This document shows positions 3,039 through 9,585 of a stretch of DNA of 11,386 nucleotides, in pieces. The DNA is from a phage, in the sequence record PZ049719.1. One strand, written 5' to 3'. The notes beneath the pieces are model-generated. The model saw only the letters and a list, made by a program, of their open reading frames with translations. It searched no databases and was not told the DNA's origin. How positions within the stretch are numbered: the stretch's first letter is position 1; every line of letters begins with the position of its first letter. The position numbers and the translations under genes are program-made.

Positions 3039-3713
3039 ATGCGCATTCTGGTTGTAGAAGACGAGATTAAAGCTGCGGAATACCTGCAGCAGGGTCTCAT
3101 CGAGTGTGGTTACACGGTCGATTGCGTAAGTGATGGGCTCGATGGATTCCACCTGGCACTGCAGAACGACTATGACATCGTGCTGCTAGACGTGAATCTG
3201 CCAACCATGGACGGGTGGGAGGTGCTCGAACTCATCAGGCGACGTAAGCAGACACGCGTCATCATGCTGACGGCCAATGGCCGCTTAGAGCAAAAGGTCC
3301 GCGGCCTGGAGTCGGGCGCCGACGACTATATGGTCAAGCCGTTCCAGTTCCCCGAGCTGCTCGCTCGTATCCGAACATTGTTGCGGCGAGGCGAGGCGGT
3401 CGCACTCCCGAGCAACCTGCGTGTAGCCGACCTCGAACTCGACCCGGGCCGGCATCGGGCCTACAGGAGCGGTCAGCGTATTGATCTCACCAGCAAAGAA
3501 TTTGCGTTACTGCATCTGCTCATGCGCCGGACTGGCGAGGTTCTGACGCGCACCGAAATAACCGCCCTGGTGTGGGACATCAACTTCGACTGCGATACCA
3601 ATGTGGTGGATGTTGCAATCCGTCGCCTACGGATGAAGGTGGACGAACCCTTTGGCGATCGCCTGATACACACCATTCGCGGTGTCGGCTACGTGCTGGA
3701 GGCGCGGCCTTGA
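3039..3713 (+). CDS. czcR: OmpR/PhoB-family two-component response regulator, heavy-metal type (CzcR/CopR/CusR-like)
   Basis: Translation MRILVVEDEIKAAEYLQQGLIECGYTVDCVSDGLDGFHLALQNDYDIVLLDVNLPTMDGWEVLELIRRRK... contains the receiver domain with the phospho-acceptor Asp in LLDVNLP, followed by a winged-helix output domain (...IRGVGYVLEARP). The ORF track begins at ATG 2982; I prefer ATG 3039 because this family typically starts MRILVVEDE, though neither start has a strong Shine-Dalgarno. The czcR symbol is by context (czcC-like OMF, porin, overlapping kinase). Confidence 0.8.
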   Translation: MRILVVEDEIKAAEYLQQGLIECGYTVDCVSDGLDGFHLALQNDYDIVLLDVNLPTMDGWEVLELIRRRKQTRVIMLTANGRLEQKVRGLESGADDYMVKPFQFPELLARIRTLLRRGEAVALPSNLRVADLELDPGRHRAYRSGQRIDLTSKEFALLHLLMRRTGEVLTRTEITALVWDINFDCDTNVVDVAIRRLRMKVDEPFGDRLIHTIRGVGYVLEARP

Positions 3714-5083
3714 AGCCACTCAGCCTCGCATCGCGTCTCGCGCTTCAAATCACATTGACCGGCGCCGTCTTGGTCGCGCTGTTGATTGCACTGAGCTACT
3801 GGGTACTTGTGCGCCAACTGGAACTGCGCGCCCAGGAGGAAGTGACGGCCAAGCTCTCGCAGATCGATCATGGACTCCTAGAAGACACCAAAGCCCGTAT
3901 GGGCCGCTCCTGGCAACACGCACTGAGCGATACGGTACTCGGCCATGACAACCTTTCGATTACCGTCATCGGCGATAGAGCCAAATCCCCCATTTTTAGT
4001 ATCGGCCGGTTCGCCCATGCGCCGCAGCAGATGGATCTTGTGAACAGAGACGGTGAATACCTAGGCTGGACCACGGAAGACGGCGTGCAGATGCTAACCG
4101 GGCGCAAGCAAATACAGGTCCCGGGACTGGCTCCAATGACGCTTTTACTTACGCAAGATCGCAGTGCCGATCAACTGCTAGTGGCTGCATTCCTGCGCTC
4201 GGCCTTAGTGACTGTGCCGATGCTGCTGATGTTGATCGGGTTGGCTGGATGGCTAGTTGCTAACAACGGTTTGCGACCGCTTCGCAAGTTTCGGGCCTTG
4301 GCGACAAAGGTATCGACGCAGGATCTGTCACCCCGAATCCGCAGCGATCAGCTTCCACTAGAGCTTCAGGAATTGGCGCACAGCCTCAACGTAATGCTTC
4401 ATCGACTCGATGACGGAGTTCAGCAACTGTCACAATTCTCGGACGATGTGGCCCATGAGTTGAAGACTCCCCTAAATAACCTGATAGGCAAGGCGCAGGT
4501 GACATTGGTGCGTGAGCGAAGCAAGGAGCAATATAGGGAAGTGCTCGAATCGTCGGTCGAAGAGCTCGAACGCATGGATCGAATCGTGTCAGACATGCTG
4601 TTTCTCGCCCAGGCCAGCCACGCCAGCCCAGCACTGAAACTCGAACAACTATCCCTGGGAAGTGAGGCGAATCGCGTCTGTGAATACCTCGAAGTCCTCG
4701 CCGAAGAAGCCGGAGTCGCAACGACGGTAACGGGCGATGCCATAGTTCTAGGAAATCGGCTTATGGTCCAACGGGCCATTTCCAACCTGCTATCCAACGC
4801 GTTGCGGCATTCGAATACTGGCAGCACGGTCGAAATTAAGATACTTGAGAAGGACATAGACATCGTCTCGCTGGCTGTCACCAATCATGGCGCGACTATC
4901 GAATCGGATCATCTCCCGCACCTGTTCGACCGCTTTTACCGCGTTAACGGCATACAACCTCGTGGGGCAGGATTGGGGCTAGCTATTGTCCGTTCAGTGA
5001 TGAACCTCCACAAAGGCCACGTGGCCGTCGCCAGCAAAGACGGTCGGACCACATTCGAACTCACCTTTCCTCGGCACGCCTGA
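3710..5083 (+). CDS. czcS: Heavy-metal sensor histidine kinase (CzcS/CusS/CopS-like)
   Basis: Two predicted transmembrane segments flank a periplasmic region. H-box FSDDVAHELKTPLNNL with the His codon at 4454..4456; N-box LLSNALRHS; DRFYRV; G-box GAGLGLAIVRSVMNLHKGHV. The only plausible start is TTG 3710..3712, overlapping the regulator stop (TGA 3711..3713) and preceded by GGAGG at 3698..3702; the first in-frame ATG lies far downstream and would delete the first transmembrane segment. Confidence 0.8.
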   Translation: MKPLSLASRLALQITLTGAVLVALLIALSYWVLVRQLELRAQEEVTAKLSQIDHGLLEDTKARMGRSWQHALSDTVLGHDNLSITVIGDRAKSPIFSIGRFAHAPQQMDLVNRDGEYLGWTTEDGVQMLTGRKQIQVPGLAPMTLLLTQDRSADQLLVAAFLRSALVTVPMLLMLIGLAGWLVANNGLRPLRKFRALATKVSTQDLSPRIRSDQLPLELQELAHSLNVMLHRLDDGVQQLSQFSDDVAHELKTPLNNLIGKAQVTLVRERSKEQYREVLESSVEELERMDRIVSDMLFLAQASHASPALKLEQLSLGSEANRVCEYLEVLAEEAGVATTVTGDAIVLGNRLMVQRAISNLLSNALRHSNTGSTVEIKILEKDIDIVSLAVTNHGATIESDHLPHLFDRFYRVNGIQPRGAGLGLAIVRSVMNLHKGHVAVASKDGRTTFELTFPRHA

Positions 5084-5231
5084 TTCAAAGTGATACGGCT
5101 TGGTACCCACTCCCCATCAGACCAACGCCATACATTAATCTCATAATGCATGCATGGCCTAATCGAGCGTGGGATGGTCTACAAAAACGATGAGTTTAAA
5201 ACAGAGCCGAATCGGCAGAAAGCGATGGTTA

Positions 5232-5247
5232 ATTACTGCTTTGTAAT
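5232..5247. promoter_or_regulatory. Box ATTACTGCTTTGTAAT (perfect ATTAC-N6-GTAAT half-sites) upstream of the small secreted-protein gene
   Basis: Same architecture as the 1226..1241 box; 71 bp upstream of the ATG at 5318. A 6-bp-stem hairpin (5266..5281, TAAGGG-TCAA-CCCTTA) lies between the box and the start codon. Confidence 0.4.
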
Positions 5248-5317
5248 GCGAAGAACATCTTCTGGTAAGGGTCAACCCTTTAATCTAAAGGTATCTACTA
5301 ACCCAAGAGGGTAACAA

Positions 5318-5635
5318 ATGAACCGCCCTGCTAAAGTAATCCTGCCGTTCTTTCTGGCCGCTGCTTCTTCGCTCGCTATGGCTGAAGACGGAGGGGAACT
5401 AACAATGCAGCGCCTTGAGAGTGCGTCAGTAACAAATCCCACCCTTAAAATACTTGTTAAAGAAGGTAAAGTGCTGAGCATAGCACCTGCAGGGACGACC
5501 GGTACGACCGGAATGATTCAGAGTTATAGAACTAACGGCAAAGTTCAAACGTACGAGATGAAGGTTAAGACCCCTGATGGGAAGATCCATACGGTTGAGT
5601 TTTTGAGCGCCCCGGTTGGTATAAACAACGGCTAA
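5318..5635 (+). CDS. Small secreted/periplasmic protein of unknown function (105 aa, signal peptide plus beta-rich mature domain)
   Basis: ATG 5318 preceded by AGAGGG. N-terminus MNRPAKVILPFFLAAASSLAMA is a typical Sec signal peptide with an A-x-A cleavage site. The mature part (...GKVQTYEMKVKTPDGKIHTVEFLSAPVG) is Thr/Gly/Lys-rich, looks beta-stranded and has no Cys/His metal motif. It sits in a visibly A+T-rich segment between the kinase and the MerR gene. Family not recognised; PepSY-like or DUF2790-like are only guesses. Confidence 0.6.
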   Translation: MNRPAKVILPFFLAAASSLAMAEDGGELTMQRLESASVTNPTLKILVKEGKVLSIAPAGTTGTTGMIQSYRTNGKVQTYEMKVKTPDGKIHTVEFLSAPVGINNG

Positions 5636-6064
5636 CAGGCCAGTAAGCCCCAACGCCATTAATTTAATGCACGCGTCCTCGCTAATGCCAGCGAGAATTC
5701 CACAAGCCTCAACTTCCCGCCCATCACTGCAATTAGCCCGCAGTGATACGAGTTGTCGTTCGAGTGACTGCAGAGCGGTTATCTGCGACTTGACTTGAGA
5801 AATGTGTTCATCGAGCAAGGCATTAACGGCCGTACAAGGCTGGCGAGGGTCATCCTGGTAGCGTTGGAGTGCGTGAATCTCTGGAAGTGACAGATTCAGG
5901 ATTCGGCAGCTCCGGATGAAGGCTAGCCGCTCGCCATGCTTCTCGGTGTAGACACGATAGCCGTTCGCCTGGCGATCAGGCGGTGGCAGCAAGCCCTGCT
6001 GCTCATAGAAGCGGATCGTCTGTGTATCAATCCCTATTAGCCTTGCTAATTGACCAATGCGCAT
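5426..6064 (-). CDS. MerR-family metal-responsive transcriptional regulator (CadR/ZntR/PbrR-like) with an aberrant 3' extension
   Basis: N-terminus MRIGQLARLIGIDTQTIRFYEQQGLLPPPDRQANGYRVYT is the MerR helix-turn-helix; a dimerisation helix follows, with Cys at residues 77, 112 and 121 in the pattern of the CadR/PbrR/ZntR metal site. The ORF has no stop until 5426, giving 212 aa against roughly 135-150 aa typical of this group. The last 65-80 codons lie antisense to the small-protein gene and look non-native (...FTFFNKYFKGGICY). The coordinates are those of the open frame; the true functional 3' end is uncertain. Confidence 0.7.
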   Translation of the reverse strand: MRIGQLARLIGIDTQTIRFYEQQGLLPPPDRQANGYRVYTEKHGERLAFIRSCRILNLSLPEIHALQRYQDDPRQPCTAVNALLDEHISQVKSQITALQSLERQLVSLRANCSDGREVEACGILAGISEDACIKLMALGLTGLLAVVYTNRGAQKLNRMDLPIRGLNLHLVRLNFAVSSITLNHSGRTGRPCRCYAQHFTFFNKYFKGGICY

Positions 6065-8628: not shown

Positions 8629-9585
8629 ATGTCGATAGATCAGCCCCTCCCTTTCTGGCGCAGAGCAGGAACATTTCTATGGGACTCAGTGCGTGAGGAC
8701 TGTGGGTATCCTGCAACGCTCATGAAGCTGATTAAGAGCCCAGTCAAACTTAATTCGCCCATCCAGGAAACAGCAAAAGGTATTGGCGCAGGAGCGGTTG
8801 TTAGGTGGCACGACTTCGGATCTCTTATTTATGAGCGCGGGATATATCGCGACAAGCTGAATGGATGGACCCACTGCCGCACCTATGGTCGGTATGGCTC
8901 GACTAGCATCGAATGCGCCCCACTATTGCGCGTTGGCAGCGAGATGCAGATCCAACGGTGGCGGTGCGATATCCAACAGGTAGATGGCTTCTCCGCGTCG
9001 AAATCCGAACTCAAGGAGTTCGCCACCATGGATGACATGGTGGTAAGGAACTCACCCGAGATGATCGACGAGATATCTCCGGCGAAGCTGGCGAAGAATC
9101 TGGCCTGGGATGAAATTCGGATCATCAGCCACGTCGATCACGATTATTTCGCCACTTGGGCTTGGGACGGACGCGTCTTTCTGATGAACTCCGGCGGTTC
9201 GCATCACTTCGCAGCTGCCAAGTACATCGCGGCGCGGCTTGAACAGCCGGTTGAGCTGACCGGAACCTATAAGATCTACGGGTTATGTGAGCAGGCTATA
9301 ACAGAACTCAGGCGTGAATACGGCATGTTCGTGTTGTCGCATGAGCCTGATGCTTGGTTGGGGTTCAACGAAGCTATGGCTCGCTTCAAGGCAACGTATT
9401 ATTGGAAGACATTGCCCCGCCCGCACAACCACCAGCGTTGCGCAATTTTTTTACCGCTAAAGGAGAAGCGCTCTGCCATGGTTGCGAGGATTCTCAAGGA
9501 AAACAATTTCCAGGACCTAGGCGCTTACTTGGCTGGCCTAGCTGCCCAGTCACAAGCGGTCATCAACAAAGTCAATCCGCCATAA
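8629..9585 (+). CDS. Hypothetical protein, 318 aa, no family assignable by inspection
   Basis: Long open frame with non-repetitive composition, divergent from the SRAP gene and convergent with the relaxase-like ORF. Contains a His/Asp-rich stretch (IISHVDHDYFATWAWDGRVFLMNSGGSHHF) that could be a metal or catalytic site. The start is uncertain: ATG 8629 has a weak GGTGA upstream, and an alternative ATG lies at 8722. Located in the more A+T-rich islet. Confidence 0.55.
   Translation: MSIDQPLPFWRRAGTFLWDSVREDCGYPATLMKLIKSPVKLNSPIQETAKGIGAGAVVRWHDFGSLIYERGIYRDKLNGWTHCRTYGRYGSTSIECAPLLRVGSEMQIQRWRCDIQQVDGFSASKSELKEFATMDDMVVRNSPEMIDEISPAKLAKNLAWDEIRIISHVDHDYFATWAWDGRVFLMNSGGSHHFAAAKYIAARLEQPVELTGTYKIYGLCEQAITELRREYGMFVLSHEPDAWLGFNEAMARFKATYYWKTLPRPHNHQRCAIFLPLKEKRSAMVARILKENNFQDLGAYLAGLAAQSQAVINKVNPP

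Follow-up and report, generated by a model that had tools for sequence, protein, structure and literature searches.

Putative heavy-metal regulator box and promoter predicted to travel with a PtrA-like gene in Stutzerimonas and Pseudomonas metal islands

Upstream of a small gene for a secreted protein of 105 amino acids, in a stretch of 11,386 bases (referred to here as the window, i.e. the whole of the DNA that was analysed), we identified the palindromic box ATTAC-TGCTTT-GTAAT (ATTACTGCTTTGTAAT) at positions 5232-5247. Judging from its sequence, rarity and conservation, it very likely serves CopR/CusR/CzcR-class heavy-metal response regulators as a binding site. Together with a degenerate proximal site and a conserved -10-like hexamer, the box quite probably constitutes an activator-dependent promoter that serves the downstream PtrA-like gene and is driven by a heavy-metal regulator.

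The box is situated in the non-coding spacer of 234 nt between czcS and the small gene; an Rfam search of the window found no known RNA element in this spacer. It is separated by 70 nt from the ATG (5318-5320) of the 105-codon reading frame, in agreement with the distance of 71 bp (5318 minus 5247) given in the preliminary description, which had placed the box upstream of a small secreted-protein gene and had described its half-sites as perfect and identical to those of a box in the czc region. Both sites (1226-1241 and 5232-5247) are indeed perfect, with TTTGTAAT common to both, and they are the two exact matches to ATTAC-N6-GTAAT in 11,386 bases, compared with a mean of 0.00 in 200 dinucleotide-preserving shuffles of the window. 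This rules out a chance palindrome at 5232-5247. Allowing one mismatch, three sites were found in the window versus 0.09 expected, the third being located at 1273-1288; allowing two, the numbers are nine versus 2.3, including ATTACAAATTTGCAAG at 2854-2869. The sites with zero or one mismatch and the one at 2854 are all intergenic. The box at 5232-5247 also fits the geometry of its proposed class, with 16 nt arranged as 5-N6-5, nnnAC on the left and GTAAT on the right.

A scan of 185,579 species genomes yielded 51 loci in which a relative of the small protein is encoded, and the box starts 83-86 nt before the ATG in all of them, with at most one mismatch in 50 loci and two mismatches in one. 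The 50 loci read ATTAC-N6-GTAA[T/C/G] or CTTAC-N6-GTAAT, starting 84-86 nt before the ATG; the 51st, with a protein identity of 31%, has CTTACTCATTTGTAAG at -83. Among the loci with a box are paralogues of 31-47% protein identity and lineages with dS values of 1.8-2.5. The preliminary description had made its proposal depend on the presence of the box in orthologous promoters, where it proved to be a regular constituent. Between them, the 51 loci have 30 different upstream sequences and represent about six genomic contexts. In the group of the window the module is located behind czcS, and in the majority of loci, including a mobilizable plasmid, behind cusA-cusF and followed by a DUF2933 gene and a sensor kinase gene. 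Elsewhere it follows a TonB-dependent receptor gene and precedes an HK-RR pair, or, in the case of paralogues, is divergent from a copper P-type ATPase gene. In the paralogues the half-sites are retained around another spacer, GAAGTT.

In most cusF-linked loci (e.g. L010 4351-6326 and L052 6349-8333), the small gene is followed by genes for the DUF2933 membrane protein and the heavy-metal sensor kinase. Within 4 kb of this kinase we found no response regulator in the cusF-linked loci, the next gene encoding an ATP-grasp-like protein of 561 amino acids; the kinase, apparently an orphan, may be on a common transcript that starts at the box promoter. In L033 (3013-3405; also in L034-L039), a paralogue of the small gene with 45% identity and its own box at -84 lies just upstream of cusF, such that cusF would be bracketed by two box-driven small genes.

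Conservation also outlines the remainder of the predicted promoter. In an alignment of 12 lineages, the mean pairwise identity is 0.33 in the 14 nt before the box, 0.90 and 0.88 in its two half-sites and 0.31 in the 6 nt between the distal and the proximal box, and then rises to 0.82 for AACAT (5254-5258), 0.97 for GTAAG (5265-5269) and 0.78 for TAATCT (5281-5286). Since the same lineages have diverged to saturation at synonymous sites, this footprint points to selection rather than to shared descent alone. The spacer nGCTTT is fairly conserved among orthologues as well, and part of this conservation may be due to shared descent. The proximal degenerate box, AACAT-CTTCTG-GTAAG (5254-5269, + strand), begins 22 bp (two helical turns) after the start of the distal box and overlaps the -35 position; A5254, C5256, A5257, C5259, G5265, T5266, A5268 and G5269 are invariant in the 12 lineages. 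We predict it to be a regulator site of lower affinity, although its left half-site, AACAT, is poor and could represent a promoter element of another kind instead. The hexamer TAATCT (5281-5286, + strand) carries the TAnnnT signature of a -10 element and lies 33 nt downstream of the box, with T5281, A5283 and T5286 invariant and A5282 at least 90% conserved in the same alignment. Transcription is predicted to start at about 5292-5295. A Shine-Dalgarno sequence, GAGG (5307-5310, + strand), is found 7 nt before the ATG, in a purine-rich stretch that is present, though varying, across the alignments. A consensus scan, which is uninformative for activator-dependent promoters, detected no sigma-70 promoter and no good -35 element at 5000-5750, and the -10 element and the start site were therefore placed by conservation only. 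No + strand terminator was detected between czcS (stop at 5083) and the small gene, so that read-through could add expression independently of the box.

The four half-sites follow each other with a period of 11 bp (5232, 5243, 5254 and 5265). Relative to the predicted start, the distal pair is centred at about -53 and the proximal pair at about -31. In PhoB-type promoters, tandem pho boxes replace the -35 element and are located about 10 bp upstream of the -10 element. The promoter proposed here resembles this type in its 11-bp period, in a proximal pair that ends 11 nt before the -10 element and in the lack of a recognisable -35 element, but its distal pair is an inverted and not a direct repeat, and its layout was deduced from conservation only. 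This arrangement of half-sites, as in PhoB/OmpR-type activated promoters, led us to propose activation by a phosphorylated regulator. By analogy, metal in the periplasm would shift the kinase/phosphatase balance of the sensor, a dimer of the phosphorylated regulator would occupy the strong distal site at about -53, and a second dimer would be helped onto the weak proximal site, where it would stand in for the -35 element; RNA polymerase would then be recruited. That the regulator binds here and activates rather than represses, and which metal is sensed, is what we infer from related systems.

The small gene (5318-5635, + strand) is real and under purifying selection: dN/dS in its sense frame amounts to 0.07-0.33, with dS values of up to 2.5. 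Its 37 full-length homologues, at 56-97% identity, occur in Stutzerimonas, Pseudomonas, Halomonas and Marinobacter, and the gene is also present on plasmids. The signal peptide assigned in the preliminary description looks Sec-type by inspection of the N-terminus (MNRPAKVILPFFLAAASSLAMA/ED), and likewise by inspection a basic N-region, a hydrophobic core and LAMA/E are conserved in 35 homologues. Residues 1-43 match the NCBIfam model NF041599, "co-regulatory protein PtrA N-terminal domain", with 47.1 bits (cut-off 31), and NCBI names the homologues likewise; the paralogues reach 16-27 bits, below the cut-off. For a periplasmic protein introduced as uncharacterised this means that the term can be kept in part only: the protein is not wholly uncharacterised, as it has a PtrA N-terminal domain, and ptrA is a known target of CopR and CzcR. 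NF041599 comprises 46 positions, mostly signal peptide, and a profile of 35 homologues retrieved 105-aa relatives only and not PA2808. For the C-terminal half, which is conserved, there was no match in Pfam. In an AF2 model with a mean pLDDT of 56, a helix (residues 43-48) is followed by strands at 54-57, 77-84 and 90-97, suggesting a beta-rich C-terminal domain of about 60 amino acids; with this low-confidence model, Foldseek retrieved nothing from the PDB at E < 0.3. Some homologues carry the JGI name PepSY/YkoI, an identity that we rejected, as neither Pfam nor Foldseek against the PDB with the low-confidence model gave a match.

On the opposite strand, the MerR family gene cadR (5426-6064, - strand) is convergent with the small gene and overlaps it by 210 nt. 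Its reading frame encodes 212 amino acids, of which residues 1-127 are CadR-like (TIGR02047), and the remaining tail of about 85 amino acids runs antisense through the small gene. With a dN/dS of 0.95-1.6, versus 0.07-0.33 for the sense frame, the tail is without coding constraint, and we rejected it as a true coding frame. It looks like an accidental extension that arose when the native stop codon of cadR was lost at the cassette junction. The antisense frame is open elsewhere too, e.g. in L033 (4061-4348).

In the window the box at 5232-5247 is accompanied by a set of metal-response genes. A gene for a CzcC-type outer-membrane efflux protein (3-1094, - strand; PF02321, best NCBIfam match divalent metal exporter subunit IhpA) extends beyond the left end of the window and is divergent from a gene for an OprD-family porin (1400-2722, + strand; PF03573, 500 bits), the probable first gene of a porin-RR-HK unit. 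The control region between them contains the second perfect box, ATTACGAATTTGTAAT (1226-1241), and the one-mismatch box ATTACGAGATCGTCAT (1273-1288), the latter 112 nt before the porin start and kept as ATTACAAGATCGTCAT in L056, a locus with a porin of 85% identity. The weak box ATTACAAATTTGCAAG, with two mismatches, is found in the 316-nt spacer between the porin and regulator genes and may mark an internal autoregulatory promoter for czcRS, a weak indication if taken alone, given the 2.3 sites with two mismatches that are expected. Downstream, a CzcR-like heavy-metal response regulator (3039-3713, + strand; TIGR01387, 339.8 bits, cut-off 279) and a CzcS-like heavy-metal sensor histidine kinase (3710-5083, + strand; TIGR01386, 436.7 bits, above cut-off) are encoded. 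The DNA-binding domain of the regulator matches PcoR (2jzy), and residues 39-155 of the kinase, predicted as periplasmic, match the CzcS sensor (5gpo, E 1.8e-6); a CusS sensor structure was absent from the structure match list for this sensor domain. The two genes were assigned to the CzcRS type by both TIGR models, by the CzcS-like sensor and by their czc linkage, with a full czcCBA in L056. Beyond cadR, the window encodes an HMA-CDF exporter, a HAD hydrolase, an SRAP protein and a DUF6685 protein. A truncated TraI_2 relaxase/helicase (C-terminal part of PF07514, plus PF07515; 9626-10870, - strand) and the DUF6685 protein (8629-9585) indicate the backbone of an ICE or genomic island, and a fragment of an EamA-like transporter gene runs off the right end of the window. 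The nearest genomes are those of S. stutzeri 24a75 and S. frequens DNSP21, with about 99-100% identity across the locus.

Outside the window the motif also keeps to metal genes. In the loci fetched for comparison (8-12 kb) it was found almost only in metal-gene promoters, namely those of the small gene, its paralogue, a DUF326 copper-binding protein, a P-type ATPase, a response-regulator operon, DUF2790 and an OprD-type porin. Porin orthologues with 66-85% identity in four other metal islands all have a box 147-175 nt upstream of the start, and one P. aeruginosa porin copy reads CTGACAGAAAAGTAAT, the CopR consensus. Taken together, these occurrences suggest that the motif marks a regulon. OprD-type porins of this subfamily (L053-L056) are always located in metal islands, and genes for small periplasmic DUF2790 proteins have the same box at -81 and -87 (L053 5332 and L054 2884).

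The box also corresponds to published sites of this regulator class. CzcR of P. aeruginosa recognises GAAAC-N6-GTAAT, with GAAABCTWHGVGYAAY as ChIP-seq motif, and its targets include ptrA, oprD and opdT (PMC13209446); the CopR consensus, CTGACA-N5-GTAAT, has the same 16-nt frame (PMC11195947). In P. paraeruginosa IHMA87, a single palindrome between cusR and pcoA2 is bound by CusR, CopR and CzcR, and its mutation abolished both copper and zinc induction (PMC11195947). That paper prints the CusR palindrome as ATTCATnnATGTAAT, which has 15 nt and is not palindromic, and its mutant as ATTACATnnATAGCCT; the wild-type site has probably lost an "A" in print. As the authors call the palindrome perfect, we infer that the site reads ATTACATnnATGTAAT, i.e. 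ATTAC-N6-GTAAT. In IHMA87 as in the window, the 16-nt palindrome ends in GTAAT; the IHMA87 site is located on an acquired metal island and is common to accessory and core regulators. It differs from the one in the window by its spacer (ATnnAT instead of TGCTTT) and by serving two divergent operons.

The closest known counterpart of the small gene is ptrA (PA2808) of P. aeruginosa, which is directly targeted by CopR and CzcR, is copper- and zinc-inducible through them (PMC7763554, PMC8531726) and coincides with a CzcR ChIP-seq peak (PMC13209446). Like the gene in the window, ptrA encodes a small secreted protein with the PtrA N-terminal domain, adjoins a heavy-metal two-component system and has a GTAAT-type site upstream. 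Unlike it, ptrA leads a divergent ptrA-PA2807(czcE-like)-queF operon next to copRS, whereas the gene in the window stands alone downstream of the kinase gene, encodes 105 amino acids with an extra conserved, probably beta-rich C-terminal domain outside the 46-position model and is preceded by a perfect palindrome. For P. stutzeri RCH2, a passage in PMC10393844 that cites Garber 2018 describes nearly identical sites and targets for CzcR, CopR1 and CopR2, which activate an OprD porin; passages in PMC8531726 and PMC7318608 also cite the overlapping RCH2 regulons (Garber et al. 2018, Mol Microbiol 107:704). As far as these passages go, RCH2 provides a parallel within the same genus, with an OprD-type porin under CzcR there and a porin with a box here.

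The small gene apparently reached its present position together with the box. BLASTN of the window against cusF-linked loci showed homology over exactly 5232-5635, beginning at the box's first base and ending with the stop codon of the small gene, so that box, promoter and gene make up a single portable module. Immediately before the box, a cusF remnant is clear in L004 (E 6e-13; pseudogene remnant at 3709-4017) and L008 (E 2e-10; about 3690-3900); in the window it is reduced to a vestige of 12 residues, SVGWSTKTMSLK (5166-5201, + strand), which has an E-value of 0.064 alone and is colinear with L004, DNA homology to the latter spanning 5156-5826. The decayed cusF remnants point to an origin of the module from a cusF-[box]-gene arrangement in a cusCBAF-linked Cu/Ag island. 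According to our analysis it was inserted between czcS and cadR in this Stutzerimonas lineage. L056 comprises czcCBA divergent from porin-RR-HK, with two boxes as in the window and without the small gene, which argues for the cassette being an insertion in the lineage of the window. The proposal that the small gene sits in a compositionally distinct cassette is borne out by a GC content of 0.47-0.49 over 5200-5800 versus 0.55-0.61 in the czc genes. The cassette is bordered at 5122-5144 and 5650-5668 by an imperfect direct repeat (CCAACGCCAT..TTAAT..TAATGCA), which arose by duplication of part of the cadR 3' end and is restricted to the group of the window, L004 and L008. Relatives of the repeat region are found in L004 (3566-3664) and, in L008, after the HK gene. 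In L004, an IS5-like element also splits cadR, at a position equivalent to about 5823 of the window. In terms of regulation, the box is best regarded as an ancestral part of the cusF-linked cassette and not as an acquisition for joining the czc regulon, and owing to the origin of the cassette in a Cu/Ag island, its principal input, or a further one, may come from a copper-type regulator.

The exact start of homology at the first base of the box, together with the flanking direct repeat, might suggest that the palindrome is an att- or dif-like recombination site at the cassette boundary instead of an operator. We consider this extremely unlikely and rejected it: the 3' end of the module lacks a partner site and the loci have a single site with at most one mismatch, while the motif is widespread, preceding many metal genes outside the cassette at promoter distances. 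Moreover, the palindrome has just 5 nt per arm, the direct repeat derives from cadR and is confined to the group of the window, L004 and L008, and selection on the box, amid neutral sequence that has diverged to saturation, accounts better for the abrupt start of homology. Alternatively, the box could be a carried-over relic, with the small gene mainly expressed by read-through from the porin-czcR-czcS transcript. The gap of just 234 nt and the failure to find a + strand terminator or a consensus promoter would be in line with such read-through, but box, proximal site and -10 element are intact in the window and its closest relatives despite decayed flanks, with cusF reduced to its 12-aa vestige, and the module keeps its promoter behind unrelated genes in other contexts. 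Read-through as the main source of expression is thus very improbable.

As to which regulator uses the box at 5232-5247, the preliminary description had assigned the small gene to the same metal-responsive regulon as the czc region. In silico this assignment is supported by the conserved box, the published half-sites and the adjacent TIGR01387 regulator with a perfect box. The adjacent regulator (3039-3713) is the obvious candidate, since its own control region, which includes the boxes at 1226 and 1273 and the weak one at 2854, has identical half-sites and since its recognition helix, DTNVVDVAIRRLRMK, is nearly identical to DTNVIEVAIRRLRAK of the copper-island regulators near the small gene. 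On balance, we expect it to be one user of the box. Copper-type regulators probably act too, because the module was imported and because these regulators cross-react; by analogy, a response also to copper-type paralogues elsewhere on the island is very probable. The cognate regulator may even be copper-type rather than the neighbour, as the box came with the cassette. If the box answered only to a CusR/CopR-like regulator elsewhere on the island, the small gene would be copper-regulated and stand outside the czc regulon. The derivation of the cassette from a cusF-[box]-small gene arrangement is compatible with this, and so is the identity of just 51-56% between the regulator of the window and those near the small gene in L040, L044 and L051. 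In S. frequens DNSP21 a second small gene with cusF and a sensor kinase is found about 22 kb away on the same contig (L001, L037), and in IHMA87 the outcome of binding at one and the same palindrome differs between regulators (PMC11195947). On the other hand, identical perfect half-sites are present in the czcC-porin region beside the local regulator and kept in L056, the recognition helices hardly differ, and CzcR, CopR and CusR share sites in published work (PMC11195947 and, in the passage mentioned, PMC10393844). Exclusive control by a copper-type regulator therefore appears improbable, and we favour a box used by the neighbouring regulator together with copper-type ones.

None of these results overturns current understanding. 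A CopR/CusR/CzcR box predicted to drive a PtrA-like gene is, as a well-supported reading, a fairly ordinary extension of the known copper and zinc regulation in Pseudomonas; what is added is that box, promoter and gene appear to move together as a unit. With its own predicted regulator site and activator-dependent promoter, a horizontally moving gene would stay regulated, and the module would work wherever it lands because the metal regulators of this class cross-react and all recognise its site. A more speculative reading, which we regard as rather doubtful, is that the module represents a self-contained "plug-in" linking a periplasmic modulator to any resident heavy-metal two-component system. 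The 105-aa protein might then act on the OprD-type porin that is induced with it, or on the sensor kinase to which it is usually linked; a 2026 preprint reports that PtrA acts on OprD in P. aeruginosa. Should this reading hold, the same box would co-induce the porin (1400-2722) and its gate, resulting in metal-controlled outer-membrane permeability on a mobile island. For the widespread, unstudied family of 105-aa PtrA-like proteins in Stutzerimonas and Pseudomonas metal islands, our analysis provides a promoter map and a strong regulatory prediction. It also connects the family to OprD-type porins with the same box, which is of interest since in P. aeruginosa the control of porins by metals influences how carbapenems enter the cell.
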